Shown in pieces: positions 4,231-20,769 of a stretch of 20,769 bases of DNA; position 1 is the stretch's first letter; every line of letters starts with the position of its first letter. The notes beneath the pieces were generated by a model, which saw nothing but the letters and a program-made list of their open reading frames with translations, searched no databases and had not been told where the DNA came from. Made by a program: the position numbers and the translations under genes. Origin of the DNA: a virus; IMG/VR virus record IMGVR_UViG_3300025326_000238, positions 1 through 20,769 of that record, one strand, 5' to 3'.

Positions 4231-4236
4231 GCTATC

Positions 4237-4265: not shown

Positions 4266-4274
4266 GAAGTGTTG

Positions 4275-5641: not shown

Positions 5642-5763
5642 AACCAGATATACCATCCTTCTGGTATCAATCCCTCCGCTAAAAGCCGGAATGCGAATTC
5701 TCTAGGGATAAACCATCCTCCCTTGAAGTCAGAGGAACAGACATTAACATAGTCAAGCATCAT
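5638..5763 (-). CDS. Small hypothetical protein (41 aa, MMLDYVNVCSSDF...WYIWL)
   Basis: GGAGG RBS. ATGA overlap with the FkbM stop upstream and with the GT2 start downstream. Confidence 0.5.
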   Translation of the reverse strand: MMLDYVNVCSSDFKGGWFIPREFAFRLLAEGLIPEGWYIWL

Positions 5764-8017: not shown

Positions 8018-8325
8018 TCGTTGGCGTTTTCCATCGCTTCATTCGCCAACTCCACTATTGCTTCACCAAACATGACGCTGGCATTTCCGATGCCATCAAG
8101 GTCTTTCGCAAGAGATCCAATGATGTCCAACAGTTCAAGCACAAATGAACGCCATTCTGGATGAATAGGTGCCATGATCTGTCGGCACAAAGGAAGAACG
8201 ATATTGACCCGCCGCGTGTGAGTCAAGATGTGATCATGAATCCGTGTCATCTCATCCATTGCTGGTTTGAGTCGGTCAGAGAATTCTACAAACGCCTCCG
8301 CTTTCACTTGCCCCAGTTCGTCCAT
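8014..8325 (-). CDS. Hypothetical helical protein (103 aa)
   Basis: Overlaps both neighbours in the operon. No recognisable motif. Confidence 0.6.
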   Translation of the reverse strand: MDELGQVKAEAFVEFSDRLKPAMDEMTRIHDHILTHTRRVNIVLPLCRQIMAPIHPEWRSFVLELLDIIGSLAKDLDGIGNASVMFGEAIVELANEAMENANE

Positions 8326-9728
8326 GAGTCCCTCTCGAATACATCAAGTGCAGAATTCGGCGTCAGATTGATTATTCGCCGTCCGTCTGCCTCGAATGCC
8401 CCTCTCGCCATCTGATACGCCTCTGCGCTTTTCTCCAGATCCGGCGCGTGCCACTTCGTCCCATCGGAGAAGTAGGACTCATCCGCATGATTCTTGTCAG
8501 GCCCTTGCGCAACAAGCTCCTGATTTGGATTTCCCTCAAACGAATACCGATGGTCAACCCCTACCAAGAGAATCATAGAGAAGCCCATCCAGTAAGCAAT
8601 TTGAAGACAGACGAACGTAACCGTGTGCCCCTCGTAAAGTCCTAATGTGGGATCGGGGAAGAACTTCCTATCCGCTAAGGACTGGATGGGGACTACCGCG
8701 GGTTGTTCCTTGATCGGATTCCCTCTTAAGTAATTCGCCGCCAGGAAGAACCTCCGCACCCTCCCCTTGTACTTCTGGATCATCCCAGCCCCGAATTGAT
8801 TTAGGACAAGGGGATTCACCGAACAGTAATAGGTTGGATAAAAGCCTTCCAAGTGCCTGATGGCATAGATGCGGTTAGTCCCGAATGAGGAATGCTTTTG
8901 AAGGAACTCAACCGGGATCTCCTTGAGAGAAGGTCCGTTGCCAATGACGATGCAAGTCTCTCCCTTATGGGAATCCTTCAGTTCGGCCCACTTTGAATTG
9001 TCCTCTTGGAACCACGGCTCCGGATTCATACGTGCTTTCTCGTCTGGGATCAATAGATTCTGTCTCATCAGCCAGGGCTTCTCGTCAATCCAGAGAATGT
9101 CCTGATGAGGGGGAACGATCCTCATATCACAATAGAGTTTGATCCCCGCAGCTCTACAGATTTCAGAGAAGTACCAATCCTCTCCCAAGAAGGTATCCGA
9201 AGAATCCTCGTACTTCATTCGGAACCAGGGATAGTGAAAGCCCTTCTCCTCCAGTTCCATGAACACCTTACGCCGAATGCAGATTGCTGCGGACCCAATG
9301 ATGTCCACTTCCAAGAGACCGGGCTTCCATTCGACGGGTTGTTTGAGATCCTCCCCATCTAAGACATACGCCTGGGGATCGTAGGGTTCTCCCCTCCTGA
9401 ATGCCAAAGCACCCACCACTGGCATATCATCTTCAATCAACCGTAAGACAACATCATGAGGCTGTAAGTGGTCTGTATCTAACATGATGAGGGCAGATTC
9501 AGGATCAGTAGTGATGTCCATGAACTTCTTGGCTATTCGGTTTCTGGAAACATCAACCCGCGCGTATGGGTGTCTGATTCGCCTGACGCCATGCAGTGCG
9601 CAGAATGCTGCCACATCCTCCCGCGCATCAGTAGCCTCAGCGGAAATAGACCGTTCATTGAGAACGGCATACCAATGCTGAGGCTTGTTCTCTAACTTCC
9701 GATGTGATCTGCGGGTTCGTTTACTCAC
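8304..9728 (-). CDS. Two-domain glycosyltransferase: N-terminal GT-A (GT2-like) plus C-terminal DUF115/Maf/CstII-like domain
   Basis: N-domain: VDVSRN, LIMLDTD, PVVGAL, IIGSAAICIRRKVF, GEDWYF. C-domain: CIVIGNGPSLKEI, FGTNRIY, AYWMGFSMILLVGVDH. Confidence 0.8.
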   Translation of the reverse strand: MSKRTRRSHRKLENKPQHWYAVLNERSISAEATDAREDVAAFCALHGVRRIRHPYARVDVSRNRIAKKFMDITTDPESALIMLDTDHLQPHDVVLRLIEDDMPVVGALAFRRGEPYDPQAYVLDGEDLKQPVEWKPGLLEVDIIGSAAICIRRKVFMELEEKGFHYPWFRMKYEDSSDTFLGEDWYFSEICRAAGIKLYCDMRIVPPHQDILWIDEKPWLMRQNLLIPDEKARMNPEPWFQEDNSKWAELKDSHKGETCIVIGNGPSLKEIPVEFLQKHSSFGTNRIYAIRHLEGFYPTYYCSVNPLVLNQFGAGMIQKYKGRVRRFFLAANYLRGNPIKEQPAVVPIQSLADRKFFPDPTLGLYEGHTVTFVCLQIAYWMGFSMILLVGVDHRYSFEGNPNQELVAQGPDKNHADESYFSDGTKWHAPDLEKSAEAYQMARGAFEADGRRIINLTPNSALDVFERDSWTNWGK

Positions 9729-9780
9729 ATCTCGGCCCCGGAAGAATCCAAGCTAGAAATCGAAGCAACCATTCCTTCAT
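9721..9780 (-). CDS. Possible 19-aa hydrophobic micropeptide (MKEWLLRFLAWILPGPRCE)
   Basis: Hand translation. ATGA overlap with the upstream micro-ORF; its stop overlaps the GTG start at 9728. Confidence 0.3.
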   Translation of the reverse strand: MKEWLLRFLAWILPGPRCE

Positions 9781-9878
9781 GGCCCACTACTCAAAGAACG
9801 ATACGCCACATAGATCGTCCCGGCAAAGAAGATAGCCCATGCTAACCATAGAATAAACGCGCTAACTTTTTGCTTCAC
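9777..9878 (-). CDS. Possible 33-aa single-TM micropeptide (MKQKVSAFILWLAWAIFFAGTIYVAYRSLSSGP)
   Basis: Hand translation from a GTG inside the RHH 3' end. Basic N-terminus plus a hydrophobic run of about 20 aa. Weak RBS. Confidence 0.4.
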   Translation of the reverse strand: MKQKVSAFILWLAWAIFFAGTIYVAYRSLSSGP

Positions 9879-10023
9879 GCTTGCTCAGTTTGAGATAGGC
9901 TTCCTTGATGAGCTGCCGTAGTACCGCAGACATAGAACGGTCCTGGTCCTTGGCTAGCTCAAGAAGCATTCGGCGGTCTTCGGGGTCGGTTTGGAACGTG
10001 GTGAGCTTCAGTTCGGCTTCCAT
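9862..10023 (-). CDS. Ribbon-helix-helix (CopG/Arc-like) DNA-binding regulator (53 aa)
   Basis: TTFQTD beta-strand followed by LLELAKDQDRSMSAVLRQLI helix pair. The ATG at 10023 is preferred because the track start (10044) lies upstream of the -10 box, within the promoter. Confidence 0.7.
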   Translation of the reverse strand: MEAELKLTTFQTDPEDRRMLLELAKDQDRSMSAVLRQLIKEAYLKLSKREAKS

Positions 10024-10032
10024 CCTAGAGGG

Positions 10033-10060
10033 ATTATAGACCAATTACTTGACTTGTCAA
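10033..10060 (-). promoter_or_regulatory. Leftward sigma70-type promoter
   Basis: Minus strand TTGACA, 16 nt, TATAAT (both hexamers consensus). Confidence 0.75.
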
Positions 10061-10077
10061 GGGTTTGGGTGTACGAT
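10049..10077 (+). promoter_or_regulatory. Rightward sigma70-type promoter
   Basis: TTGACT, 17 nt, TACGAT. Its -35 abuts the leftward -35. Confidence 0.7.
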
Positions 10078-10108
10078 AGTGTACAGTAGACACTGAGAGG
10101 AGAACACC

Positions 10109-10288
10109 ATGAACCCACGAATTGAGTACCAAGGCTACACCATTGTCGTACACTCTCCAGAGCCTCATTGGTACATGGCTGAGATCCTGCGCAACGACAA
10201 GTCCCTTGGAATGACACGCCCCTACTACACCGTAGACGCCGCAAGGGGTGATGCCCTAATCGTGATCGCCAAGTTGAACAGGAAGTAG
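10109..10288 (+). CDS. Hypothetical protein (59 aa, MNPRIEYQGYTIVV...AKLNRK), first rightward gene, below the track cutoff
   Basis: Hand translation. GAGGAG RBS; TAG at 10286-10288. Confidence 0.7.
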   Translation: MNPRIEYQGYTIVVHSPEPHWYMAEILRNDKSLGMTRPYYTVDAARGDALIVIAKLNRK

Positions 10289-10342
10289 CTCGGCCCTCCC
10301 GCCTGCTTCCAAACTCTTTGGAGGCAGGAAGGCTAGACCGAG
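10289..10342 (+). other. Intergenic stem-loop
   Basis: CCTGCTTCCAAA (10302-10313) pairs with TTTGGAGGCAGG (10317-10328), one G-U pair. CTCGG/CCGAG closes it. No U-tract. Confidence 0.55.
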
Positions 10343-10351
10343 GAGAACCCA

Positions 10352-10402
10352 ATGTCTCAGCATACAGCAGGACCAATTGAACTGAGTGATGGCACGTCCT
10401 AA
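10352..10402 (+). CDS. 16-aa mini-ORF (MSQHTAGPIELSDGTS), possibly a truncated gene
   Basis: Strong GAGGAG RBS. The start resembles the common phage N-terminus MSKHTPGP. Confidence 0.3.
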   Translation: MSQHTAGPIELSDGTS

Positions 10403-10443
10403 TTGCAGCTTGAACCAAGCTTCGCCCTACCAAGGAGACTGAC

Positions 10444-10878
10444 ATGAAACCCCTAGATTTCGCCTATGATGACGGAGGACGCCAAGAAGCTGGATATATC
10501 GGCTATACGGGCGATTGTGCCTGCCGAGCTGTGGCTATTGCCTTGCAACGTCCCTACCAAGAGATCTACCGAGAACTGTCCTCATATGCTCAACTCGAAC
10601 GGCCGCGCGGGCGGGGTCGTCGATCACATGCTAGAACTGGCTACCACGCTCGAACGCTGCGCAAATACCTCGCTGACCACGGGTGGAATTGGCATCCCAC
10701 AATGCAGGTAGGTCAAGGCTGTCAGACTCATCTCCGCGCTAATGAATTACCAAGAGGCCGTCTCATCACACAGGTGAGTAAACACTACGTCGCAGTCATT
10801 GACGGCACGATGCACGATATATCAGATCCCAGCCGCAATGGTACACGCTGTGTATACGGCTATTGGAGTCAATCATGA
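10444..10878 (+). CDS. Phage protein with a putative Cys-His-Asp (papain-like) triad
   Basis: AAGGAG RBS; motifs GDCACRAVAIA, SKHYVAVIDG, HD and CVYGYW. Confidence 0.7.
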   Translation: MKPLDFAYDDGGRQEAGYIGYTGDCACRAVAIALQRPYQEIYRELSSYAQLERPRGRGRRSHARTGYHARTLRKYLADHGWNWHPTMQVGQGCQTHLRANELPRGRLITQVSKHYVAVIDGTMHDISDPSRNGTRCVYGYWSQS

Positions 10879-11078
10879 AACCCCTTGATGAACGTCTCAG
10901 GAATCTCAAACTCATCCGCCCTCCAGCTCTCTATACCTTCTTGGAGCAGTGCGCGGACCAAGCTACCTCCTTGCAGATCCAGGTCCGTTGTCTCCAGAAG
11001 GCCAATGCAGAGCTTGTGGATCAACTCAACTCACTCTATTGGGTCCGAGAAAGAGAGCACATGGATGTCCCCTTCTAG
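10875..11078 (+). CDS. Hypothetical protein (67 aa, coiled-coil)
   Basis: ATGA overlap with the previous gene; GGAG RBS. Confidence 0.65.
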   Translation: MKPLDERLRNLKLIRPPALYTFLEQCADQATSLQIQVRCLQKANAELVDQLNSLYWVREREHMDVPF

Positions 11079-11145
11079 ATCAACCCTCGTCATCGTGGTT
11101 CTCTGGGCCCTGTTCATCATCTTTGGGATATTGGAGGCGCAATGA
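11065..11145 (+). CDS. Possible 26-aa membrane micropeptide (MSPSRSTLVIVVLWALFIIFGILEAQ)
   Basis: Hydrophobic run; fills the gap; ATGA overlap with the next gene. Confidence 0.4.
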   Translation: MSPSRSTLVIVVLWALFIIFGILEAQ

Positions 11146-11372
11146 CCCCCGACGTTCCGCACCAGTGGATTCTCGATAAGCTGACCGCCCTTTGCCTCAT
11201 GGGTGAAATGGATAAAGAGGAAGTAGACAGAATCTATGCCCTGTTTGTCCAGCGCTTCCCAGATGAAGTGGCACACATGAAGCTGGAACTAGCAATCCTT
11301 CGTGGATACTCGCCTTTCATGGACCTCGAACAGCAAGGGGATAACTACATCACGGAGTCAGCACGTGAGTAG
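11142..11372 (+). CDS. Hypothetical protein (76 aa)
   Basis: GGAGG RBS; coupled to its neighbours. Confidence 0.65.
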   Translation: MTPDVPHQWILDKLTALCLMGEMDKEEVDRIYALFVQRFPDEVAHMKLELAILRGYSPFMDLEQQGDNYITESARE

Positions 11373-11583
11373 CTTCACCGCCAAGTTCCCCGGTAGGTGC
11401 GGTATCTGCCGTATGCGTATCCGCAAAGGAGATGAAGTCGTTTGGATCCCACCTACCAACATCGAACTTCCTGATCCCTACGACTACGAGAAGCAACAGG
11501 GAGGCGGGAAGAAACTCATGACTACCAAACTCGTGCACGCATCCTGTCAGCGCATCATGGAAGGAAAGGAAGCAGATGAGTGA
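11365..11583 (+). CDS. Small Zn-binding protein (72 aa; CxxC...HxxC)
   Basis: GTG start after GGAG; AKFPGRCGICRMRIRKGDEV...HASC. Confidence 0.65.
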   Translation: MSSFTAKFPGRCGICRMRIRKGDEVVWIPPTNIELPDPYDYEKQQGGGKKLMTTKLVHASCQRIMEGKEADE

Positions 11584-11827
11584 CCCGTGGAAGATGACAA
11601 GGCTGCTTTTTGATGATTTGCGGGCTCCTGTTGTCGTTCGTGATGATCCCGTTCGTGCGGCCAAACACCTCCGAGAATTGTTGGCCGACGCCGATGCGCT
11701 GCTGGCCCTAGTCATTCCAGCCCAGGAAGCCTTTGACTACTTCGAGGCCGACTATGACCAGCCCGAATGGTTTATGGCCCTTGAACGAGCATTGTCGCAT
11801 CTATCCCCGCATCTGAAAGGCGAATGA
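11576..11827 (+). CDS. Hypothetical protein (83 aa)
   Basis: Overlaps the previous stop; purine-rich RBS. Confidence 0.65.
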   Translation: MSDPWKMTRLLFDDLRAPVVVRDDPVRAAKHLRELLADADALLALVIPAQEAFDYFEADYDQPEWFMALERALSHLSPHLKGE

Positions 11828-11828
11828 C

Positions 11829-12737
11829 ATGAACGAGGAATCTACCGACATCGTAGCTGTCCCCAATCAGGTTCAGTTAGGGACGATCCAGATGCGGCCC
11901 GAAGAAGTGATCGAACGGGCCTCTCAGATCGCCACGCAACTAGCCAAGATTATCAAGGATCGGCAGCTCTCAACTCGCATTCGGGACAAGGATCACGTCC
12001 GAGTGGAGGGCTGGACTACCCTGGGGGCCGTCCTGGGCGTCATCCCAAGAGAGCGGCAGACCACGAGGACCGAACAGGGATTCGAATCCTACGTTGAATT
12101 GATCCGTACCTCGGATGGTCTTGTAGTCGGAGGCGCTTCCGCTATCTGCTCTTGGGCCGAACCAAGATGGTCCAAGGCCGATGACTACGCGGTCAGGTCA
12201 ATGGCTATCACCAGAGCTACAGGGAAAGCCTACAGGCTGGGCTTCTCTTGGATCATGGTCCTAGCTGGTTACTCACCTACTCCAGCCGAGGAGATGGATC
12301 AGGTCATCGAAGGAGTGGTGAAAGAGACCAGCCCAAAAGCCAGTACGTCTCAGTCGTCAGCGGAAGCGGCCCAGCTTGGCAGAACCACGAAGCCGATGGA
12401 AACTGGTACGCCGAAAGCAGAGCCGACATCGCTGACTGGTACTAGGCAGAAGAACCAATGGCCTGATGCCCAGAAGATTCTCAAAACCCTAATGCAAGAT
12501 GGCCTGATCGACTCAGTTGAACACGCCGTGGGCATCCTGAACCACTCCGTGTTCATGAACGTGGCTGAGGGGAAGCTGGAGCTGTACGACATCGCCGTCT
12601 ATCTCTGCGGATGGCAGAGCCTACCCGAAAATCTCAGCACAAACGACAAGGCCGAACTCACCAATGAGAAGTACCTAGCCGGTGCCCCGAAAGAGTGGGA
12701 AGACGCCGCCAAGCATATCCTGGGGATGAAACTATGA
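11829..12737 (+). CDS. Putative ssDNA-annealing/recombination protein (302 aa)
   Basis: Early-region position. N-domain has HVRVEGWTTLG, SMAITRATGKAYR and TPAEEM (compare the RecT/Redbeta-type ...EEM end), then a low-complexity linker and a helical C-domain. Function is inferred. Confidence 0.5.
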   Translation: MNEESTDIVAVPNQVQLGTIQMRPEEVIERASQIATQLAKIIKDRQLSTRIRDKDHVRVEGWTTLGAVLGVIPRERQTTRTEQGFESYVELIRTSDGLVVGGASAICSWAEPRWSKADDYAVRSMAITRATGKAYRLGFSWIMVLAGYSPTPAEEMDQVIEGVVKETSPKASTSQSSAEAAQLGRTTKPMETGTPKAEPTSLTGTRQKNQWPDAQKILKTLMQDGLIDSVEHAVGILNHSVFMNVAEGKLELYDIAVYLCGWQSLPENLSTNDKAELTNEKYLAGAPKEWEDAAKHILGMKL

Positions 12738-13066
12738 GTGACGCACTCTTCGCCATCGGACTGACCGAAGCAAAAGCGGCGGCTGAGAAAGAGACGACGC
12801 TTCAGGCTCAGATGGATGCCGCAATGAAACTGATGCAACATCACTGGATGATCTTGGACGAGGACTTGCAGTTCCGTTGCGCGGTTGGCGCACTGCTCAT
12901 GATTGTGGATGAACAGACACAAGAGACGATCAAAGAGGAAATGGCGTCCCTCAAAGCACTATCGGCCTTGATGTCTGGAATCCCAGTAGACATGGAGCGT
13001 GTCACCGTTCCACAGAACCCATTGGGACTCATGAAACGATGGAAAGAGCTCAAGGTTCAGCCATGA
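12734..13066 (+). CDS. Hypothetical protein (110 aa)
   Basis: ATGA overlaps at both ends. Confidence 0.65.
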   Translation: MSDALFAIGLTEAKAAAEKETTLQAQMDAAMKLMQHHWMILDEDLQFRCAVGALLMIVDEQTQETIKEEMASLKALSALMSGIPVDMERVTVPQNPLGLMKRWKELKVQP

Positions 13067-13260
13067 CCACCAATGGCAGGAAGCGCCGCCTCGGAATGTC
13101 CCCCGAAGGACGGAGGATTCTACAGATGCGGAATGAAGCCATCTGGAAAGGATGGTCTGAGGGAGGCAAGTCATTCGGGACGCTGGCTTTGGAATTCCAA
13201 TTGGCGAGGTCCACGATCCAAAAGATCGTGGAACAGCAACGCAAGGGAAAGGAGCAGTGA
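13063..13260 (+). CDS. Small HTH DNA-binding protein (Mor-like C-terminal HTH), 65 aa
   Basis: RNEAIW...LALEFQLARSTIQKIV pattern. Confidence 0.6.
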   Translation: MTTNGRKRRLGMSPEGRRILQMRNEAIWKGWSEGGKSFGTLALEFQLARSTIQKIVEQQRKGKEQ

Positions 13261-13261
13261 G

Positions 13262-13450
13262 ATGGACATTTACAGAGTGAAATGCAGCAATACACAGATA
13301 CTCGGAGAACGACGGGAGTACATTGTTCTCGCCAAGACTCTAGGCGATGCTGAGGTCAAGGCAGTCGCCAAGATGAAGCAAGAGTTGAAGGGCGAGCGGG
13401 GCGTGAATTACGCATACGAAGCTGCCCTTCTTGGCCCCTTGACGAAATAG
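13262..13450 (+). CDS. Hypothetical protein (62 aa)
   Basis: ATG 1 nt after the previous stop, GGAG upstream. The 5' part of the 125-aa track ORF is probably non-coding extension. Confidence 0.6.
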   Translation: MDIYRVKCSNTQILGERREYIVLAKTLGDAEVKAVAKMKQELKGERGVNYAYEAALLGPLTK

Positions 13451-13490
13451 CATCTAGACTCGTCCATGTCGTCTAACGCTGGACCGGCCT

Positions 13491-13540
13491 CTGGCCCCGG
13501 TGCAACCTCCAAGGTTGTTCCCCTCTCAACCGGGGCCCAG
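13491..13540 (+). other. Intergenic nested stem-loop
   Basis: GGCCCCGGT (13493-13501) pairs with ACCGGGGCC (13529-13537) and encloses CAACCT-CCA-AGGTTG (13503-13517). Confidence 0.55.
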
Positions 13541-13558
13541 GAATCATAGGAGGACATC

Positions 13559-13918
13559 ATGGGATACATGCGACACCACACTATCATCGTTAGTAGTTGG
13601 GATGCCGAGGCTATTGAGTTGGCACACAAACAGGCCAAGGAAACACTGACCAAACTTGTCTCGCCCATCATGGGACCATTCACGAATGGCTATGCTTCAT
13701 TCTTCGTGGCCCCCGATGGCAGCAAGGAAGGCTGGGAGACATCGGATACCCACGATCTGCAACGGGCTGTATTTACTGAGTGGCTCAACACACAGCGATA
13801 TGAAGATCGTTCATCATGCTTTGCTTGGGTAGAGGTTCAATTCGGCGATGACGAATTGGAAACCCGCATCGTCAATGACAACGATGCACTTATTCGTGAT
13901 CGAGGTCTCAAAGAATGA
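13559..13918 (+). CDS. Hypothetical phage protein (119 aa)
   Basis: GGAGG RBS; motifs MGYMRHHTIIV and FFVAPDGSKEGW. Confidence 0.75.
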   Translation: MGYMRHHTIIVSSWDAEAIELAHKQAKETLTKLVSPIMGPFTNGYASFFVAPDGSKEGWETSDTHDLQRAVFTEWLNTQRYEDRSSCFAWVEVQFGDDELETRIVNDNDALIRDRGLKE

Positions 13919-14097
13919 CCCTCTGGCACATCATCCGCTTCACCACCATACGCCACCTGTGGCTTGTCATTCTCACATGCAATCCAGCCAATAAGCAGAG
14001 CTTGTGGACTGAGAGATGGGTGGCAGTCAAACAACGGAATGCAGTAGCATGGGATCCCAATGAGTTGCATCGCTTCTTGAAGGGAGAATTGCAATGA
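13915..14097 (+). CDS. Hypothetical protein (60 aa)
   Basis: ATGA overlaps at both ends. Confidence 0.5.
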   Translation: MTLWHIIRFTTIRHLWLVILTCNPANKQSLWTERWVAVKQRNAVAWDPNELHRFLKGELQ

Positions 14098-14708
14098 GGG
14101 AGTACGAGAAGATACAGTCTATCTACAAACGGGACGACAAGACTCACCGTTTCATAGATGAGCAATGGTCTACGCCTGAGATCGCCTATCTTGCTGAATG
14201 CGAATGGGAGTGGACCGAAAAAGTGGACGGGACGAATATCCGTGTTGGTTGGAATGGGGCTATCGTTGAGTTGGGAGGGAGAACGGCGGCTGCACAGATA
14301 CAAGCCAGCCTGATAGCACGATTGCAAGAGTTGTTTCCCTCAACTATCTTCGCCGCCTATCCAGCTGGCATCGTTCTATATGGCGAGGGGTACGGCGCAA
14401 AAGTCCAGAAAGGCGGAGAGAACTACAAGGCCAATGGCGTTGACTTTGTTCTGTTTGATGTGCTGGTCGGAGACTGGTGGCTTTTGCATGAGGATGTGGA
14501 GGATGTAGCCCGTCAACTGGGGATTGCTACGGTGCCCGTCATCGGAAGGGGACCTATCTCCCAAGCCGTTGATATTGTGAGGGGCGGATTTCCATCGAAG
14601 TGGGGAGCATTCCCAGCAGAGGGATTGGTATTACGCACCCCCGTTGGACTTTGCGGTAGGAACGGCCATCGTGTCCTTGCGAAACTAAAGACAAAAGACT
14701 GGGCTTGA
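14094..14708 (+). CDS. RNA ligase, Rnl2-type nucleotidyltransferase domain
   Basis: Motif I TEKVDGTN, III LYGEGYG, IIIa FVLFDV, IV EGLVLR, V AKLK. Confidence 0.85.
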   Translation: MREYEKIQSIYKRDDKTHRFIDEQWSTPEIAYLAECEWEWTEKVDGTNIRVGWNGAIVELGGRTAAAQIQASLIARLQELFPSTIFAAYPAGIVLYGEGYGAKVQKGGENYKANGVDFVLFDVLVGDWWLLHEDVEDVARQLGIATVPVIGRGPISQAVDIVRGGFPSKWGAFPAEGLVLRTPVGLCGRNGHRVLAKLKTKDWA

Positions 14709-14730
14709 CACACAAGCAGGATGAGGCCAC

Positions 14731-14759
14731 TTGACAGGCTGGCAGGATAAGATGATAAT
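14731..14759 (+). promoter_or_regulatory. Sigma70-type promoter upstream of the replication gene
   Basis: TTGACA, 17 nt, GATAAT. Confidence 0.75.
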
Positions 14760-14774
14760 GAGTGCACAATATAA

Positions 14775-14888
14775 GGCCCCGCCGTGGGCCAAAGGCCAGG
14801 GATGAACCGCCTCCTGGGCGGTTCGCAGTTTTCCCTAAACCCTGGCCGGGAATACGGCGAACTGCGGGCCGACCAAGAGGCGGTTTTT
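14775..14888 (+). promoter_or_regulatory. Structured 5' leader with two alternative folds (attenuator or RBS-sequestering switch)
   Basis: A 26-nt inverted repeat (14805-14830 with 14860-14885) competes with the stems 14794-14801/14840-14847 and 14804-14811/14817-14824. Confidence 0.65.
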
Positions 14889-14889
14889 C

Positions 14890-15468
14890 GTGCCTAGCAA
14901 ATACTGGATCAAGCTCTACCACGAAATCATTGACGATCCGAAGATGATGCGTATGCCGGATGAGATGTTTGCCAAGACAATCAAGCTCTTCCTCCTAGCT
15001 GGAGACCACGACCAAGACGGCGAGCTACCTTCGCCAGAGGATATTGCGTGGCGCTTGCGTTACGATCCCAGTGACGTTGATGTAACGCTTCGTTACTTAG
15101 AGCGTAACGGCATCATTTCACAGAACGGATCTGGGGCATGGTGCATAAGCAAGTGGGCAGATAGGCAAGGCCCCATATCTGGCGCTGAGAGGGTCCGCAG
15201 ACACCGTATATCCCGTAGAAACGAACCTGTAACGAATCGTTACACAGAATCAGATCAAGAATCAGATACAGAAGAGATGAGATCAACATCCACAAGCGTT
15301 ACAGACCTGTTCCACTTCGGAGTTCCGCTAGACGCTGCACGACAGTACGTTGAGAGAGTGGGAGAAGAGAGAGCGAGAGAACTTAATACTCTTTTGTTCA
15401 AGGGAAAGATGGACAAGACCATCCGATCACCCAAAGCATACGCACTCAAAGTAATCTCAGAGGAGTAG
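14890..15468 (+). CDS. Phage replication initiator (replisome organiser N-terminal domain type)
   Basis: YWIKLYHEIIDDPKM start, KLFLLAG, a wHTH-like segment, ERVRRHR, ESDQESDTE linker and a C-terminal SPKAY. Confidence 0.8.
   Translation: MPSKYWIKLYHEIIDDPKMMRMPDEMFAKTIKLFLLAGDHDQDGELPSPEDIAWRLRYDPSDVDVTLRYLERNGIISQNGSGAWCISKWADRQGPISGAERVRRHRISRRNEPVTNRYTESDQESDTEEMRSTSTSVTDLFHFGVPLDAARQYVERVGEERARELNTLLFKGKMDKTIRSPKAYALKVISEE
15058..15302. repeat. Iteron-like GTAACG/CGTTAC cluster, candidate replication origin
   Basis: Seven hexamers at 15058, 15082, 15091, 15104, 15229, 15238 and 15297, including two GTAACG-N3-CGTTAC palindromes. AGAATCAGAT direct repeat at 15246 and 15258. Confidence 0.65.
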
Positions 15469-15510
15469 GTGGAGATACCGCGCCTAAAGACAACCCTAGA
15501 CAGGAGAAGG

Positions 15511-15753
15511 ATGATGCACACACGAAACCCTAATGTCAATACAGTCTGGAACTTGCTTGCCCCTTACATTGCATCAGAGAATCCGCCCGATCTAGGCAAT
15601 GAGGAACAGGCCGAACTATTGATAGCGAATGTCCTGCCTACTGTTTGGGATCTGATGCTGGCCGTTGAGAAGGAATTGGACAGCATCAAGCAAGCCCTAA
15701 GCGAAATCTACCATATCTGTGAATACGAGTACCCGGAGCTGCTGGATATATAG
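15511..15753 (+). CDS. Hypothetical protein (80 aa)
   Basis: AGGAG RBS before ATG 15511, preferred over the GTG at 15469. Confidence 0.6.
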   Translation: MMHTRNPNVNTVWNLLAPYIASENPPDLGNEEQAELLIANVLPTVWDLMLAVEKELDSIKQALSEIYHICEYEYPELLDI

Positions 15754-15784
15754 CTAGCCCCTGCGCCTACAAAGGAGAAGGACG

Positions 15785-15979
15785 ATGACCTTTGTTGAAC
15801 GTGCTGATTGGATTGATGTGAAAGAAGGCCAAACCTCGGGCGTCATTCGGAGGATGGGGCGCGTCAAGCCGTGCGCTAATTGCGGGAAGTTGACACCGTT
15901 CTTCGACGAATACCGAGATCGTCGCATCTGTTCCAAGAAATGTCTGATCGAGGATCGCGAGAAGAAAGGATGGAACTGA
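15785..15979 (+). CDS. Small Zn-finger protein (CxxC...CSxxC)
   Basis: AAGGAG RBS; CANCGK and ICSKKC. Confidence 0.65.
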   Translation: MTFVERADWIDVKEGQTSGVIRRMGRVKPCANCGKLTPFFDEYRDRRICSKKCLIEDREKKGWN

Positions 15980-16008
15980 TGCCAGTGAGTAGCCCATCAG
16001 GAGGAACG

Positions 16009-16287
16009 ATGCACACCCACGTCTGGCGACACTTCAACCAGGACATCCCGTTCCTATGCCGATTGGGGGACTGCGCGGCACAACTGACTTGGGAGGAAGC
16101 CGAGCGCCGCTTGAATGCCGTGGAGATGCTGCCTGTTGAGAAGGCGAAGGAGATTATCGAGGGCGTCTTGAAACTGGCCCATTTTGTAGGCGATGTGATA
16201 GATGACGATGAGTTGAAGACTATCGCCATTAACCCAAACAAGGATCTGTTGGCCTACGCCAGCATCTTAGAAGGGGAGACGACATGA
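16009..16287 (+). CDS. Hypothetical protein (about 92 aa)
   Basis: GGAGGA RBS before ATG 16009. An alternative coupled start is at 15979. Confidence 0.6.
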   Translation: MHTHVWRHFNQDIPFLCRLGDCAAQLTWEEAERRLNAVEMLPVEKAKEIIEGVLKLAHFVGDVIDDDELKTIAINPNKDLLAYASILEGETT

Positions 16288-16814
16288 GTGAGAAGTTGAC
16301 GCGTAAATACAGCGAGATCGTGGGAACTACATTTGTTGGCGGTGAATGGCAAGACCACGATTTGTTGTCTGTCATTGGCGACCTTGAATCTGAGCTCGCC
16401 CAAGCCCAGGCCGACGTGGAGGCGCTGCGAACTGCCATTGCGGACCTTGGGGAGGAGTGGGATAAGTCTAGCATTCATCAAGAAATCCACACAACAAGTC
16501 TAGGCTGGTTCATACGGCTGTGTCGGGAAGTCTCCCTCTCCCGAGCACTTGAGAGGAACAAGCAGATGAATGAGAAGCTGAGTCTGCACGATCATGGCAA
16601 TTGCGAACTATGCGATCAGCTCGAATCCGAACTCGCTCTACTGAGAAGGGCGGTGAAGGAACTGGATCATGACTTGCACCGCAAATGCAAGGTCATTGCA
16701 ATTCTGCAGAATGGGGGACAGGTCGGGCCCGCCGCGGGCGCTCCACATCTGCCGCTAGACGTACTGGAATTCATCAAGGAGCAGGAAGGTGCTAGTCTGG
16801 CTGAAGACCGCTAA
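16284..16814 (+). CDS. Hypothetical coiled-coil protein with a CxxC motif (176 aa)
   Basis: ATGA overlap; heptad-like LESELAQAQADVEAL; HGNCELC. Confidence 0.65.
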   Translation: MSEKLTRKYSEIVGTTFVGGEWQDHDLLSVIGDLESELAQAQADVEALRTAIADLGEEWDKSSIHQEIHTTSLGWFIRLCREVSLSRALERNKQMNEKLSLHDHGNCELCDQLESELALLRRAVKELDHDLHRKCKVIAILQNGGQVGPAAGAPHLPLDVLEFIKEQEGASLAEDR

Positions 16815-17055
16815 CGGGAAGGTAGCTCATGGCTGGGATCTCCGCTGGCCCAGACAGAGGAAGTTCGTCTCCCTCTGCTATCAATGGCGGGAGTGGGATG
16901 AGTTGGGCAGACCTGCAACAAGGAAGTGTCGGAGCTGTCAGAGAGTGTTCAAGCGGTTTCAGAAGAGAAGTAGGGGATTGAATCTCGAAATGCCTGTAGC
17001 GTGGTTCAATGCGGAGTGGAGATATGGAACCCATACACAGAGCCATTCTGAGTGA
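16789..17055 (+). CDS. Small basic Cys/His protein (88 aa)
   Basis: H...SLC...CRSC pattern; fills the gap. Confidence 0.5.
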   Translation: MLVWLKTANGKVAHGWDLRWPRQRKFVSLCYQWREWDELGRPATRKCRSCQRVFKRFQKRSRGLNLEMPVAWFNAEWRYGTHTQSHSE

Positions 17056-17380
17056 ACTCGGCGTCGGGAAGTTCCACTCCCTCTCTAGGGATGAACTCCG
17101 CCTCCGTGTTGGGTATTGGATGGATCGGGAAGTCTCCGACCGAGAGCTACGAGCGGCGATTGAGTGGCTTAGGGCTAACGATCCTCGTGGTGCTTGGATC
17201 ATCTCAGACTCAGCATGGCAGGGCTATTGGTTCGGGGAGTCCATCGAAGAAGTCAAGGAACACTGTAGAGTAACCAGGAACACAGCTTACACGCTGTTCA
17301 GGAGAGCACGACAGCAGGTGAAGTTGGCTGAACTAGCACTTAGAGAAGTCCGCGTAGAACAACTGGAGATGGCGATATGA
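17024..17380 (+). CDS. Putative winged-helix phage protein
   Basis: SRDEL...SDRELRAAIEWLR...IIS...GYW pattern; GGAG RBS before ATG 17024. Confidence 0.6.
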   Translation: MEPIHRAILSELGVGKFHSLSRDELRLRVGYWMDREVSDRELRAAIEWLRANDPRGAWIISDSAWQGYWFGESIEEVKEHCRVTRNTAYTLFRRARQQVKLAELALREVRVEQLEMAI

Positions 17381-17682
17381 GCAAGCTGCTTAGTGAATAT
17401 CTCAACGAGTTCGCCTCTGCACATGGCTTGCGGATGGCGAACGCCGGCTTACCTAGCGGCTACGATACTATCATGGGCTTTGCTGAATTGGCGATCAAGA
17501 TGCAGACTGAGAACGCCGAACTGAAGCGGCGGGTGGACATAGTAGAAGCACAACTCAAGATGGTCTGCGAGTCTGAGGAAATCCATCATCCAGATTGTCC
17601 ACAGTTCACTGGCCCCTACGATCTTGGAGAACTAGAGCCAGCATGTATCTGTGGGCTGGATCAGATGTTGGCCCATGACTAA
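17377..17682 (+). CDS. Hypothetical protein (101 aa; H..C...CxC tail)
   Basis: ATGA overlap; GGAG RBS. Confidence 0.6.
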   Translation: MSKLLSEYLNEFASAHGLRMANAGLPSGYDTIMGFAELAIKMQTENAELKRRVDIVEAQLKMVCESEEIHHPDCPQFTGPYDLGELEPACICGLDQMLAHD

Positions 17683-17887
17683 CTGGCACGCCTCCTACTT
17701 CCACCCCAAGCCCGCGGAATATCCCTCCGATCTCCTCCCCCATCAAGTGGAGTGGATTCGGGTGAACCAGTCGTATATCGACGCTGGATCTTCTGAGGAC
17801 ATGCGGGAACTCTGTAGTTCCTTTCATGGGAAAGAGGAGCTGTGTAGGTATGTGGCGAGGAAGGGGAGGAATAGCTGTGGGAGGTAG
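17675..17887 (+). CDS. Hypothetical protein (70 aa)
   Basis: Overlaps both neighbours. Confidence 0.45.
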   Translation: MTNWHASYFHPKPAEYPSDLLPHQVEWIRVNQSYIDAGSSEDMRELCSSFHGKEELCRYVARKGRNSCGR

Positions 17888-18194
17888 CAAATTCAAGAAT
17901 ATCCCGAAGCGGGTTGACGGCATCCTGTTCCAGAGTACCAAGGAAGCCCGGCGCTATACCGAACTCAAGGCGCTCCAACAGGCGGGCGTCATCAGCGATC
18001 TGGAGACGCAGCCCAAGTACCGCCTTGACGTGAATGGTGTCCATATCACGAACTACTTTGCGGACTTCAGGTACTTCGACAAAGAGCGCCAGCAGCAGGT
18101 AGTTGAGGACGTAAAAGGTGTCCGCACTCAAATCTACATTCTGAAAAGCAGGTTGATGGAGGCCATTCATGCGATTGAAGTTGAAGAAGTCTGA
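17877..18194 (+). CDS. DUF1064-family PD-(D/E)xK nuclease-like protein
   Basis: SKFKN...VDGILFQSTKEARRY, YFADFRY, VVEDVKG. GTG start after GGAGG. Confidence 0.85.
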   Translation: MGGSKFKNIPKRVDGILFQSTKEARRYTELKALQQAGVISDLETQPKYRLDVNGVHITNYFADFRYFDKERQQQVVEDVKGVRTQIYILKSRLMEAIHAIEVEEV

Positions 18195-18891
18195 CGCACC
18201 GCTCCAGATCAGATTCCGATGTCACTATTGCGGCTGCTGGGATTTGGTAAACCGGAGTCAACTCAATCACTACAAAGGTGCAGGGACATTCTGTTCTCGC
18301 CAATGTGCCTTCTCTTACTATCGGGAACATCCCGAAGAAAGGCAAAACTACAACAACGGTAGGACCATTGACGGTAATGGATACGTCCTGATGAGAGATC
18401 CGAGAATTCCCAAGAACGAGCCAGTGATCCGCGTGCGTGAACATCGGTTGATTATGGAGCAACACCTTGGACGCAGGCTCGATGGCTGGGAGCACATTCA
18501 TCATAAAAACGGCAACAAGATCGACAATCGAATTGAGAATCTCGTCATCATGGACGAGGCCAGTCACCATCTCTTACATAGCGACGACAGTCCAATGTGG
18601 GGAAAGCCAGCAGGATGGTTGGAATGGGACTTCTCGGTAGAACCCGAAACATGGATAAATCCGAAAGAAATCATTCTCGATCCATTTATTGAACTAGATA
18701 TTGTAGATCTATATCTTGACGGGCTTGGCATGGCCCGCATTGGCAAACTTTACGGGCATTCTCGCGAGCTAGTTAAGAGGGTTCTGCGGGATTATGGAAT
18801 TCCTTTTCGAAAGTGGGGCAGACACCGTGGCACTTGGTCGGAAGAGGCTTACGAAGCCCTGAGGTTGAGGGCGCAGGAGGTGAAGAAGTGA
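18169..18891 (+). CDS. HNH homing-type endonuclease (N-terminal Zn finger, HNH_3 core, C-terminal HTH-like)
   Basis: CHYC..FCSRQC; EHRLIMEQHLGRRL; HIHHKNGNKIDNRIENL. Confidence 0.85.
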   Translation: MRLKLKKSDAPLQIRFRCHYCGCWDLVNRSQLNHYKGAGTFCSRQCAFSYYREHPEERQNYNNGRTIDGNGYVLMRDPRIPKNEPVIRVREHRLIMEQHLGRRLDGWEHIHHKNGNKIDNRIENLVIMDEASHHLLHSDDSPMWGKPAGWLEWDFSVEPETWINPKEIILDPFIELDIVDLYLDGLGMARIGKLYGHSRELVKRVLRDYGIPFRKWGRHRGTWSEEAYEALRLRAQEVKK

Positions 18892-19127
18892 ACCGATCAG
18901 AAGCACACATGGCCGCAGCAAAGTATCTAGCTCAGAACGCCGCAATGAAGTCACAGATCAGATGGTTTCGGAAGATGTTGCGAGAGTTTGTCTGGCTCTA
19001 TCAACACGAATCGCCCAATGATCTCGGTTCATTTACGGAGATCCAGCGGCATGAATGGGTGATGCGACGGGATGCCGCAATAGCCACAGTCTTAAGAAAC
19101 TTGAAATACAGAGCGAGGAAGAAATGA
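18888..19127 (+). CDS. Hypothetical protein (79 aa)
   Basis: GGAGG RBS; GTGA overlap. Confidence 0.6.
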   Translation: MNRSEAHMAAAKYLAQNAAMKSQIRWFRKMLREFVWLYQHESPNDLGSFTEIQRHEWVMRRDAAIATVLRNLKYRARKK

Positions 19128-19312
19128 CTCTCCGCGAAGGTCTCTTATGGCAGTTCAACATCTTGAAAATCTCGACCTGGAGAAAATTCCGAAGGGCCAC
19201 ATGGGGCATTCTATGGTGCGCCATTCGCGGATATCATCTGTGGCATGGTGGCGGGATAAGGGACTTTCGCTGTCTGATGTGTGGCGAACGATACAAGGAT
19301 GGAATGCCATGA
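19124..19312 (+). CDS. Small basic protein (62 aa) with a C-terminal C...H...CxxC motif
   Basis: ATGA overlap; begins MTLREGLLWQ. Confidence 0.6.
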   Translation: MTLREGLLWQFNILKISTWRKFRRATWGILWCAIRGYHLWHGGGIRDFRCLMCGERYKDGMP

Positions 19313-19338
19313 CCCTCCGCGAAGGTTTACTTTGGCAG
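19124..19338 (+). repeat. 30-nt imperfect direct repeat at two consecutive gene starts
   Basis: 19124-19153 versus 19309-19338. The differences are synonymous. Confidence 0.8.
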
Positions 19339-19530
19339 CTCCGAAAAGGCCTCACCCAGGAAGCCGTGGAGGAGGCCAAGAGAGTCTACTTCTCCAAGTA
19401 CGGGAGTGAACCTAGAGAAGTTCTTTGTTCGCAGGCGCACTCACCCATTCCAGGAGTAACCCAGGATCGAGGCATACCCTTGGGCGTATTGCTTTTGACA
19501 TTCTCCCAAGAGAGGCCAGATGGGGCGTAA
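19309..19530 (+). CDS. Hypothetical protein (73 aa)
   Basis: ATGA overlap; begins MTLREGLLWQ; GLLW...EEA...Y..KYG..P motif. Confidence 0.65.
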   Translation: MTLREGLLWQLRKGLTQEAVEEAKRVYFSKYGSEPREVLCSQAHSPIPGVTQDRGIPLGVLLLTFSQERPDGA

Positions 19531-19583
19531 CGGGTTTGGTATAGGGGAAAGACAATCTCCGATAACCACCTTGGATGCCAACC

Positions 19584-19611
19584 TTGACATCCGTAAAGTT
19601 ACGAGTAGAAT
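19584..19611 (+). promoter_or_regulatory. Sigma70-type promoter for the second HNH gene (leaderless)
   Basis: TTGACA, 16 nt, TAGAAT; GTG start 6 nt downstream; no SD. Confidence 0.7.
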
Positions 19612-19617
19612 TGGCGT

Positions 19618-20115
19618 GTGGCAAAGACCCGCTCGTTGTACGGAAGCATCATGCTTGAGCGTCAAATCTGTCCGAAATGCGGGGAGTGGTGTCTTATCAA
19701 GCAGGGTAAAACAGCCTGTTGTGATGAGATTGCTGAGACTACGGCCAAGCGTCGTGCTCAGAGAATGTCAGGCGGATCAGGCGTTCGCCACATTCCAACA
19801 AAGGACGAGCGTAACCGCATTCTCTGGAAGCAGAAGCAATCATGTTTCTACTGCGGTAGGTACTTTGGGTCGGCGGTATTTCGCAATGGCAATATCATCC
19901 TGCTCAGGCTAGAATGGGATCACTTCGTACCGTTCTCTTTTACGCTTGCCCGACAGAACTTCGTCGCCGCTTGTCATATTTGCAATCGGATCAAGGCAAG
20001 CATGGTGTTCGAAACACCAGAAGAAGCTAGGCAATATGTCTCCAAGACGCGCGAGGCGAAAGGCTACAGCGAAGTGCCTAAAGTGTGGCCTGGAGTATCA
20101 GAAGAAGAGGAGTGA
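19618..20115 (+). CDS. HNH endonuclease, Zn-binding McrA-like type
   Basis: CFYCG...EWDHFVP...NFVAACHICNRIK, with an extra N-terminal CPKC..CC. Confidence 0.85.
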   Translation: MAKTRSLYGSIMLERQICPKCGEWCLIKQGKTACCDEIAETTAKRRAQRMSGGSGVRHIPTKDERNRILWKQKQSCFYCGRYFGSAVFRNGNIILLRLEWDHFVPFSFTLARQNFVAACHICNRIKASMVFETPEEARQYVSKTREAKGYSEVPKVWPGVSEEEE

Positions 20116-20197
20116 CCAACGCTACTGTAGTACATCCTGTCGCGTCAGGGCATGGCAACTCCGAACATTCATTCGCAAGAGCGAGGTTGGTGAGTGA
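20036..20197 (+). CDS. Small Zn-finger protein (53 aa)
   Basis: CLKCGLEYQKKRSDQRYCSTSCR motif; overlaps the HNH 3' end. Confidence 0.55.
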   Translation: MSPRRARRKATAKCLKCGLEYQKKRSDQRYCSTSCRVRAWQLRTFIRKSEVGE

Positions 20198-20430
20198 TCT
20201 CGAAGGCCGATCTCTTGAGAATGTACGAGGACATGGGTTCTTGGCACAGATTGGGACACGATATGGACATTCCCGCCATGACACTGTGGCGCTATGCCAA
20301 CGACCCCGACTATGAACCAAAGCGTAAGGACATCCGAATGAAACTAGATCTAGACCCCGCTTACCATGTCTTCTATGTCCGCCAAATACGCAATGCTGGG
20401 GGCCGCTTCGCAAAGGTGAACAATGGGTGA
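20194..20430 (+). CDS. Small putative HTH DNA-binding protein (78 aa)
   Basis: GSWHRLGHDMDIPAMTLWRYA is HTH-like; GTGA overlap. Confidence 0.55.
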   Translation: MISKADLLRMYEDMGSWHRLGHDMDIPAMTLWRYANDPDYEPKRKDIRMKLDLDPAYHVFYVRQIRNAGGRFAKVNNG

Positions 20431-20656
20431 CCGATACTTCCTCACGGTCCTCTGTCCAGAGTGCGGAGCCAAGCACTTGGATGTGTACTATGCCCCCACT
20501 TGTGAGATCAATACCTTCCGGTGTCCTTGTGGGAACATTATTGATCTGGAGGAGTACAGCGGGATTTCCTATGAAGACGCCAGCAACGCCTCTGAGATCA
20601 AGGCAATCGCAGATGGTTGGCTTCTTAGTGACGGACATCGTGCGGGACACGGATAG
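20423..20656 (+). CDS. Zn-ribbon protein (77 aa)
   Basis: CPECG...CPCG. Confidence 0.6.
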   Translation: MGDRYFLTVLCPECGAKHLDVYYAPTCEINTFRCPCGNIIDLEEYSGISYEDASNASEIKAIADGWLLSDGHRAGHG

Positions 20657-20659
20657 CCA

Positions 20660-20769
20660 ATGATCCGCCTCCTCCCCATCTTCCTGCTGCTCGCGGCCTG
20701 CTCCGTTCAGGTTCAACCTCTGCCTACAGTTCATCCTCAGGCAATAGAGACCTTAGCCCCTGATGAAAG
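20660..20769 (+). CDS. Predicted lipoprotein, truncated by the window end
   Basis: MIRLLPIFLLLAACSVQVQPLPT... has a basic n-region, a hydrophobic h-region and lipobox LAAC. Confidence 0.6.
   Translation, partial: MIRLLPIFLLLAACSVQVQPLPTVHPQAIETLAPDE

Follow-up and report, generated by a model that had tools for sequence, protein, structure and literature searches.

A Predicted Bistable Leader RNA ahead of a Phage Replication Gene and Its Resemblance to a Candidate Family of Promoter-Leader-Terminator Cassettes

The rep attenuators of plasmids pT181 and pIP501 carry a terminator-like stem-loop with the ribosome site just 5′ of the rep start, and a pre-emptor that pairs with the 5′ arm of the terminator leads to read-through (PMC5703833). 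By analogy, this is the nearest known mechanism for the element described here, a self-complementary leader of ~124 bases that precedes a replication (rep) gene at position 14890 of a viral DNA. That DNA, IMG/VR record IMGVR_UViG_3300025326_000238 (20,769 bp, ~53% complete), is called the window. Like the plasmid attenuators, the window has a terminator-like stem-loop with a ribosome site directly 5′ of the rep start, and it has a pre-emptor pairing, formed by an inner hairpin (14804–14811 with 14817–14824) and a further helix, the clamp. In the plasmids, an antisense RNA arises from a promoter inside the leader, whereas a consensus scan found no such promoter at the window. The window also differs in having this second long helix, which clamps the 5′ end to the terminator apex, and in that its element lies in a phage, appears portable, and has several copies in relatives. 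Computation shows that the two folds of the leader are individually significant, that the nascent chain favors the clamped one, and that the layout recurs in other cassettes with covariation of the clamp.

Other described systems share parts of this arrangement. In P4 CI and P1 C4, a constitutive promoter feeds a leader in which internal RNA–RNA complementarity decides premature termination before replication or lytic genes. The window's promoter likewise feeds a leader with self-complementarity before a replication gene, and an earlier note on this DNA had drawn the comparison. It stands as a comparison of logic only; membership in the C4/CI family does not, as the window has no covariance-model match in Rfam. 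Unlike those systems, it also lacks repeated target sites flanking a processed RNA, and its pairing is within one leader. The λ PR′-6S RNA-tR′ unit resembles the window in its strong promoter and intrinsic-type terminator within ~120–200 nt, gating an operon. That unit has no competing antiterminator fold and serves late genes, whereas the window's element would gate replication or early genes, and no Q-like gene or Q-binding element was identified at the window. The gene upstream encodes an RNA ligase, no antiterminator family was matched among ~30 open reading frames (ORFs), and a −10-like TATAAG at 14770–14775 varies at two bases in a related contig. The PyrR-controlled pyr attenuators of Bacillus comprise several leaders per cluster, each with terminator, antiterminator, and third structures; their stems covary, and a motif for protein binding is conserved. 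One related phage contig, G001, recalls this organization with four cassettes that have an unpaired motif in common; in contrast to pyr, no PyrR-like protein or motif was found, and the window's cassette lacks the shared motif.

HK022 putL opens at the transcript 5′ end and works without a protein, and put RNA, ~70 nt in two adjacent stem-loops, binds polymerase and is processive over kilobases (PMC9378689). Tn916 canT is a cis RNA antiterminator paired with insulating terminators (PMC11658703). As with putL/putR and canT, the structured RNA considered here lies at or near the transcript 5′ end, just behind early promoters, with several copies per genome; put and canT need no protein. Unlike put, which shares no strand with a terminator, the window's fold competes directly with the adjacent terminator, and its alternative fold is a clamp around one hairpin instead of two side-by-side stems.

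In the minimum free energy (MFE) structure of the leader, 14805–14830 pairs with 14860–14885. A pair-by-pair count gives 22 Watson–Crick pairs, two G–U pairs (14822–14868 and 14823–14867), and two mismatches (14814/14876 and 14818/14872), exactly as the earlier note had reported. Its further observations, that this hairpin buries a GAGG ribosome site and ends in TTTTT just before the GTG, also hold for the window. The 5′ arm is recovered as an inverted repeat as well as in the MFE, the 3′ arm holds the Shine–Dalgarno GAGG (14877–14880), and the T-run (14884–14888; a U-run in the RNA) forms the hairpin foot just 5′ of the GTG at 14890, with its first two U residues paired to 14805–14806. Toward the apex, the helix continues to give arms of 38 nt. 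The MFE of 14765–14895 is −70.1 kcal/mol, compared with −50.0 ± 3.8 kcal/mol for 200 dinucleotide shuffles (z = −5.34), none of which folds as well. A 5′ hairpin (14775–14790) is also present in this terminator state; in the alternative fold, its bases 14775–14779 pair with 14866–14870 and 14780–14786 enter the clamp.

The alternative fold contains both pairings that the earlier note had described, GGCCAGGG with CCCTGGCC (14794–14801 with 14840–14847) and GAACCGCC with GGCGGTTC (14804–14811 with 14817–14824). Both turn out to be parts of a larger structure. The first pairing belongs to the clamp, a 17-bp interrupted helix between 14780–14801 and 14840–14859 with 16 Watson–Crick pairs and one G–U pair (−33.6 kcal/mol). 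The 5′ strand of the clamp comprises 14780–14786, 14789–14790, and 14794–14801, the first two segments pairing with 14853–14859 and 14849–14850, and its 3′ strand (14840–14859) lies at the apex of the terminator hairpin. The clamp encloses the inner hairpin (14803–14825; also an inverted repeat), whose 3′ strand falls within the terminator 5′ arm. Against shuffles of either strand, the clamp gives z = −3.7 (p ~ 0.002) and z = −2.9 (p ~ 0.007), and a separate test gives z = −4.5. In this fold, a weak hairpin of 4 bp presents the GAGG in its 7-nt loop. As read from the coordinates, the linkers that separate the clamp from the terminator arms are 3 nt on the 5′ strands and 0 nt on the 3′ strands, so that the full clamp and the full terminator helix cannot coexist, even as a pseudoknot. 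The claim that the two folds are mutually exclusive is thereby sustained, both being stronger than chance.

Over the same 127 nt, the clamped fold has an energy of −57.9 kcal/mol versus −65.6 kcal/mol for the terminator fold, and its share at equilibrium is negligible (~6 × 10⁻⁶); the energy models leave out pseudoknots and proteins. In growing prefixes of the transcript, the clamped fold is the MFE until ~14880. The terminator helix enters the MFE once 24 of the 26 bases of its 3′ arm have been made; in 200 sequences with a shuffled 5′ region and loop, the average requirement is 10.9 bases, and six of them reach 24. The direct path from the clamped to the terminator fold has a barrier of ~43 kcal/mol, which is an upper bound.

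These calculations lead us to propose a folding race. In the computed folds of the growing RNA, the inner hairpin (14804–14824) ties up part of the terminator 5′ arm, and the clamp (14780–14801/14840–14859, together with 14775–14779/14866–14870) then locks this state. Only once the nearly complete 3′ arm (14860–14885) is out does the more stable terminator-like hairpin become the lowest-energy fold, and the outcome of the race would decide whether polymerase stops at the U-run (14884–14888) or reads through into the replication gene. The depth of the clamped fold as a kinetic trap leads us to expect read-through by default for the nascent transcript. The terminator would then represent the off state, which an agent (candidates are a protein, an RNA, or polymerase speed) would bring about by blocking or slowing formation of the clamp. 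The window's terminator fold would also hide the ribosome site, and transcripts that relax into it later would be silenced for translation. That the hairpin acts as an intrinsic terminator, and that the leader controls expression as such, we infer from the modeled folds. We give a little better than an even chance to the reading that a bistable, cis-acting leader RNA gates a strong host-type promoter here, as a compact member or, at the least, a structural analogue of a family of portable promoter-leader-terminator cassettes not described before.

The promoter is of the σ70 type and lies on the plus strand: TTGACA (14731–14736), a 17-nt spacer, and GATAAT (14754–14759) match the consensus at 11 of 12 positions, with the transcript predicted to start near 14766. 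The near-consensus promoter and ~125-nt leader of the earlier note are thus confirmed. Within the scanned region (1000–20769), three sites only score at least 11/12. The other two are a 12/12 minus-strand site (10033–10060), which points leftward and lies in the divergent control region, and an 11/12 plus-strand site (19584–19611), which stands directly before an ORF at 19618–20115 without a structured leader. A repeat search showed that the −35 box comes from the second of two direct repeats of 22 nt (14704–14725 and 14730–14751, plus strand; 77% alike and 26 nt apart), each of which opens with CTTGACA (CTTGACA-N5-GCAGGAT-R-AG). One metagenome contig seems to hold ~156 extra nt between these repeats.

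The window's own leader shows no variation among its copies, including those at two metagenome loci (L079 and L080) with Rep proteins 99% identical to that of the window. Among contigs of four DNA runs, one of 254 nt, from wastewater, departs from the window at 19 places in 253 nt, and the nine listed differences all fall outside 14774–14889: six at 14741–14773 and three at 14890–14937, including a GTG-to-TTG change at 14890. In metagenome contigs, the flanks thus diverge by ~14% while 14774–14889 is unchanged; by our own arithmetic, the random chance that 19 changes in 253 nt miss this 116-nt block is ~1 × 10⁻⁵. A 669-nt soil contig shares 14703–14886 only, with three substitutions and a 10-nt deletion at 14721. 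The sequence on both sides is unrelated and, downstream of 14886, reads by eye as another ribosome site and an ATG. On these comparisons, the promoter-leader-hairpin unit appears both constrained and portable. Nearly every leader base takes part in pairing in at least one of the folds, and such a two-structure constraint would explain the invariance, as would recent mosaic transfer.

No leader similar in sequence to the window's was found at any of 77 viral loci with a rep homologue or by blastn against 61 other rep leaders. A similar layout occurs with unrelated arms in 15 other cassettes, four of them in one 45-kb phage contig. It consists of a promoter, a 5′ clamp strand that pairs with the terminator loop, a terminator-like hairpin, usually a U-run, and a gene start. 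Five rep lineages (L005, L009, L016, L026, and L038) have noncoding leaders of unrelated sequence behind promoters of 11–12/12 (10/12 for L038). Each leader has a 5′ segment with complementarity to the loop of a hairpin directly before the rep start (z = −3.2 to −7.3 versus shuffles), and each keeps the clamped fold as the MFE of the growing chain until little of the hairpin 3′ arm is missing. L005 and L009 are mutually homologous, and compensatory changes can be read from their sequences in both helices. A scan for interleaved helices in the order clamp 5′ strand, terminator 5′ arm, clamp 3′ strand, terminator 3′ arm (A, C, A′, C′) covered 93 non-redundant sequences (475 kb of rep loci). It returned 30 instances at a score of at least 28 and 15 at a score of at least 32, compared with ~5 and ~1 in dinucleotide shuffles. 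Extra cassettes behind promoters of at least 10/12 came from L013 (three), L054, L050, L045, L060, L030, L025, and L104; curation was partly by eye, L104 was left out of the 16 curated cassettes, and L025 was dropped later (clamp z = −0.4).

The arm sequences differ completely between cassettes, and pairing is strongest between cognate strands. Among the 16 curated cassettes, the mean clamp energy is −34.0 kcal/mol for cognate versus −16.5 kcal/mol for non-cognate strands, and the corresponding means for the terminator arms are −32.4 and −11.3 kcal/mol. The cognate partner is the best in its row in 15/16 cassettes for the clamp and in 15/16 for the terminator, and clamp z is −3.5 or lower in 15/16. 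In an alignment of 12 cassettes without the window (A5), with clamp columns counted by a hand-set structure, these columns are paired in 89.7% of cells, compared with 30–42% when slid and 69.9% when shuffled (0/500 shuffles as high). Ten of the 12 clamp pairs change on both sides, and the covariation score is 0.457 versus 0.195, again with no shuffle of 500 as high. RNAalifold returned no consensus for A5 because MAFFT cannot align arms of unrelated sequence. The comparison of cassettes other than the window's therefore points to covariation in support of the clamp helix. In six cassettes, the helices contain 13 G–U pairs versus two A–C mismatches, and U-runs occur on the gene strand only, both of which favor an RNA of the plus strand. 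The full-length MFE is the clamped fold in four cassettes and the terminator fold in the rest, a split that, within the energy models, suggests near-balanced bistability.

The cassettes share further details of placement. The clamp 5′ strand opens a few bases after the −10 box, and the 3′ strand lies in the terminator loop. In the window, the first pair of the clamped fold is at 14775 (~+10), within the ~15 nt of the predicted start that characterize the family, and its 5′ segment is complementary to the terminator apex and encloses the 5′ arm (z = −3.7 to −4.5). An inner hairpin that uses the terminator 5′ arm as its 3′ strand is found in the window and, by unsystematic inspection by eye, in L013_2, L054, and L050. 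Also by eye, the clamp core of the window resembles that of L050 at 7/8 bases. In most cassettes, a U-run follows the hairpin, and the ribosome site and start codon lie no more than ~40 nt away. The ribosome site is outside the hairpin in L005, L009, L016, L038, and most of the others, so that the burial proposed in the earlier note, true of the window, is not kept across cassettes, and the U-run mostly is. Two further elements are common to the larger cassettes: an unpaired motif, in which a U-rich part is followed by an ACAAC-C-ACAUAUC-like one, and a third helix, which is short, lies directly 5′ of the two terminator arms, and crosses the clamp and the terminator helix.

In contig G001, which is 45 kb long and holds L013, all four cassettes of the contig occupy the same strand of a 9-kb stretch with replication and early genes (L119 coordinates 10541–10666, 9260–9404, 6112–6270, and 1869–2023, minus strand). 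L013_3 and the fourth G001 cassette are paralogues with compensatory changes in the clamp and the third helix, and A-to-G changes on both of their terminator arms give G–U pairs. The serial cassettes and the motif shared by the larger ones suggest a common factor. The gene downstream is rep in six lineages, including the window. A gene resembling HNH/homing endonucleases lies directly behind 5/16 cassettes, namely, L013_2, L013_3, the fourth G001 cassette, L050, and L030 (genes at L013 2090–2500; L119 5096–6097 and 1459–1860, minus strand; L050 800–1237; and L030 1560–2228). Other downstream genes encode a helicase-methylase fusion, a primase-like protein, and small proteins of no assigned family. 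The order in L013 and L050 is cassette, HNH, rep, which suggests that the endonuclease genes were inserted behind the cassette; either they target expressed slots or the cassettes travel with them. From these gene neighborhoods, the cassette would be a general head of early operons without rep specificity, and the cassettes appear to head replication and early operons in uncultured phages with rep relatives in Chloroflexota (Anaerolineae) genomes. The earlier note's assignment of the switch to replication control survives insofar as the window's gene encodes a replication protein (weak Phage_rep_org_N and DnaD-like matches). The device itself is not initiator-specific, as cassettes stand before early operons and homing endonucleases, and the window's own cassette is found before a different gene.

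Several points weigh against the reading that a bistable RNA family gates these promoters. The start site, termination at 14886–14889, and either fold are predictions, and intrinsic termination at hairpins so long presumes that a Chloroflexota polymerase uses them. No sequence similarity links the window to the other cassettes, with which it has the layout in common; the window lacks the shared unpaired motif and the third short helix, with 3 nt between clamp and terminator arm. The earlier note had looked to covariation among homologous leaders. The window's own copies offer none, being identical, and the support comes only from the comparable two-fold layout and covarying clamp of other cassettes. 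The U-run is absent from L016 and weak in L026 and L050, so that some cassettes may not terminate transcription. Folding energies of the minus strand are about as good as those of the plus strand. The clamp was noticed in some lineages before the selection rules were set, and per-lineage p-values are therefore not fully blind. Finally, a clamped fold that won every race would leave the terminator without effect; a trigger is therefore needed, and none was found, with no antisense promoter and no complementary site in the 20.8-kb window.

The antisense RNA that the earlier note had listed among possible triggers, in the style of plasmid countertranscripts, finds no support, as a consensus scan detected no minus-strand promoter of at least 8/12 within 200 nt on either side of the start codon. 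A terminator-like hairpin is present on the minus strand at 14790–14775, and in other cassettes, minus-strand promoter sites are weak and inconsistent in position. The window contains no match of at least 11 nt to leader segments on either strand other than imperfect ones of 13–14 nt at the contig ends; two of these were considered as trans targets and judged to be chance, the window being ~53% of the genome. In viral contigs, exact-pattern scans for the window hairpin, for a 17-mer of L005/L009, and for the shared motif plus TTTTGC turned up nothing beyond the known loci and chance matches in coding DNA. A 30-codon ORF from the ATG at 14802 to the TAG at 14895–14897 spans the leader and stops 5 nt past the rep GTG, and its translation could be coupled to hairpin unfolding. 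As a leader-peptide trigger it was rejected, no comparable ORF being kept in L005, L009, L016, or L026 (by eye). ORFs that overlap the leader (14554–14922 and 14513–14767, minus strand; 14762–14947, plus strand) have no PHROG match.

Database searches are consistent with the earlier note's suggestion that the family may be undescribed. Rfam cmscan gave no match in the whole window at the gathering score and, in 14400–15100 at E values up to 10, two chance matches only (P9 and sR53). The other cassette loci have no Rfam match, and no tRNA lies in the leader region. Nor is there a conserved ligand-binding core of the riboswitch kind, the leader being without similarity to the 61 rep leaders and negative in Rfam.

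The main alternative, which we consider unlikely, is a constitutive terminator read through by processive antitermination, with the clamp as part of an RNA that modifies polymerase. The antiterminator could be a phage Q- or N-like protein, a host Nus/boxA-type complex, or a put-like leader RNA. In λ PR′-6S-tR′, too, a strong promoter leads directly into a terminator that precedes an operon. Four serial cassettes on one strand of the 9-kb early region of G001 would suit antitermination as well, as would the occurrence of the motif core of the larger cassettes, (U)UACAAC, in Anaerolineae rRNA leaders. Precedents for the RNA version are putL, which also opens at the 5′ end and needs no protein (PMC9378689), and Tn916, with its insulating terminators and cis antiterminator (PMC11658703). 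However, this explanation does not account for a hairpin that shares the terminator 5′-arm strand, as in the window and the three cassettes identified by eye, or for the energy balance between clamp and terminator. No Q/N-like protein is present among the ORFs tested, the window has no boxA-like motif, and the single-stranded 5′ bases 14764–14773 vary between contigs. A put RNA consists of side-by-side stem-loops with no clamp around a hairpin.

A boxA origin of the cassette motif was tried and kept as a weak lead: Anaerolineae rRNA leaders share only the (U)UACAAC core with it, and the window lacks the motif. In three Chloroflexota genomes (L126, L127, and L128), a conserved rRNA-leader element, ACCUUAACAACUGAA-R-W-GUGAUAGGAAG, follows the proximal promoter in the last 100 nt before 16S, and further upstream these leaders share a hairpin followed by a UUACAAC-like box. 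These elements are probably boxA/boxB-type antitermination signals. On an unrelated viral contig (L129, ~11000–11110), a stretch of ~80 nt holds two copies of a small hairpin with CAACAACCAC behind it (TTGCA...TGCAA-CAACCAC). The element came to notice solely through the motif that it has in common with the cassettes, and it may be a nut-like site.

The remaining alternatives are less likely than processive antitermination. The cassette could be a stand-alone gene for an abundant, structured, trans-acting RNA of ~120 nt, either an immunity RNA like P4 CI or one that acts by self-titration through an exposed clamp strand. It is a complete promoter-to-terminator unit, portable between contexts, and all 116 nt are invariant, loops included, between diverged flanks; moreover, most larger cassettes hold the clamp 3′ strand in an open terminator loop, free to pair with another molecule. 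We regard this as improbable. Pairing in two alternative folds alone would constrain almost every base, and the hairpin always abuts a same-strand gene start, which points to a role in cis; Rfam shows no C4/CI match, and no complementary target exists elsewhere in the window.

We hold in equally low regard a purely post-transcriptional device with little or no termination. It could serve for RNase III-type processing, stabilize the 5′ end, or act as a translational timer by exposing the ribosome site in the nascent fold alone. The GAGG inside the hairpin, the GTG start, and the exposure of GAGG in the 7-nt loop of a weak 4-bp hairpin in the clamped fold are what a timer would show; a duplex of 26–38 bp is long enough for double-strand-specific RNases, and the clamp pairs the transcript 5′ end in most cassettes. 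Yet the ribosome site is outside the hairpin in L005, L009, L016, L038, and most others, and a U-run follows most stems. A DNA-level element, that is, interleaved inverted repeats tied to an origin or to recombination/homing and without an RNA role, is very improbable: its position beside a replication gene with palindromes suggestive of an internal origin, the HNH/homing-endonuclease genes behind 5/16 cassettes, the mosaic boundaries, and the similar fold energies of the two strands would suit it, but the constant orientation to promoter and gene, the U-run on the coding strand only, the 13 G–U pairs versus two A–C mismatches, and the cassettes before non-replication genes all speak against it.

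The genes around the leader place the element in its genomic and host context. The window carries portal and terminase genes on the minus strand and a rightward block of small early genes from ~10,444. An RNA ligase family gene (14094–14708, plus strand; PF09414, 66.6 bits) lies upstream of the leader. The gene downstream (14890–15468, plus strand) encodes a 192-residue protein of replisome-organizer/DnaD-like type, assigned from weak matches to Phage_rep_org_N, replication-initiation, DnaD-like helicase-loader, and replisome-organizer families. Because a conserved N-terminus (M-x-S-K-Y-W-I-K-L-Y-H-E-I) is common to the window protein and 37 homologues, the GTG at 14890 is taken as the true start. 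In bacterial collections with one genome per species, rep relatives come almost only from Chloroflexota, mostly Anaerolineae (Pelolinea, Bellilinea, and Anaerolineaceae), which makes this phylum the likely host group. The CTTGACA...TAnAAT form of the window's promoter recurs in the rRNA promoters of three Chloroflexota genomes with rep relatives; these two findings make the σ70-type reading of the promoter reasonable. No cultured phage with a close relative was found: blastn of 14600–15000 in the phage collection gave no match, and tblastn of Rep gave a single weak match, to a Limnohabitans phage.

Within the rep gene, near-perfect palindromes of the form TGTAACG-N2-TCGTTACA occur at 15081–15096 and 15228–15244 (also 15058–15109), with copies of GTAACG/CGTTAC nearby. 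The origin may be internal to the initiator gene, as in λ O. In four prophage-like loci on Chloroflexota genome contigs (L107, L108, L117, and L118), palindromes of the GAAC-N4-GTTC type (e.g., TAGAAC-N4-GTTCTA) lie at or near promoters 60–200 nt upstream of rep. These resemble LexA boxes of the Gram-positive type; if they are such boxes, these rep relatives use SOS control in place of the leader cassette.

The bistable-leader reading can be extended, more tentatively and at well below an even chance, to a new class of self-contained phage RNA device. In such a device, a portable promoter would be fused to a bistable leader whose clamp between 5′ end and terminator loop sets the fate of polymerase, with the arms of each copy as specificity determinants, and the whole may spread as a mosaic unit with homing-endonuclease genes. 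One possibility is a promoter-specific antiterminator or insulator that separates successive early operons; another is a shut-off switch that responds to a factor bound to the shared unpaired motif; a third is self-titration, with finished leaders pairing in trans with nascent ones.

If the proposed mechanism is true, these phages would gate early and replication operons by RNA folding alone, a form of control not described before. The cassette is compact (~190 bp with its promoter) and modular and has diversified into many versions that do not cross-pair. It would interest RNA biologists who study co-transcriptional folding, kinetic traps, or the control of terminators, and it could supply orthogonal regulatory parts. 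Chloroflexota are, to our knowledge, a major and poorly studied phylum of soil and sludge without a model phage, and the cassettes would give a first view of gene regulation in the phages of this group.

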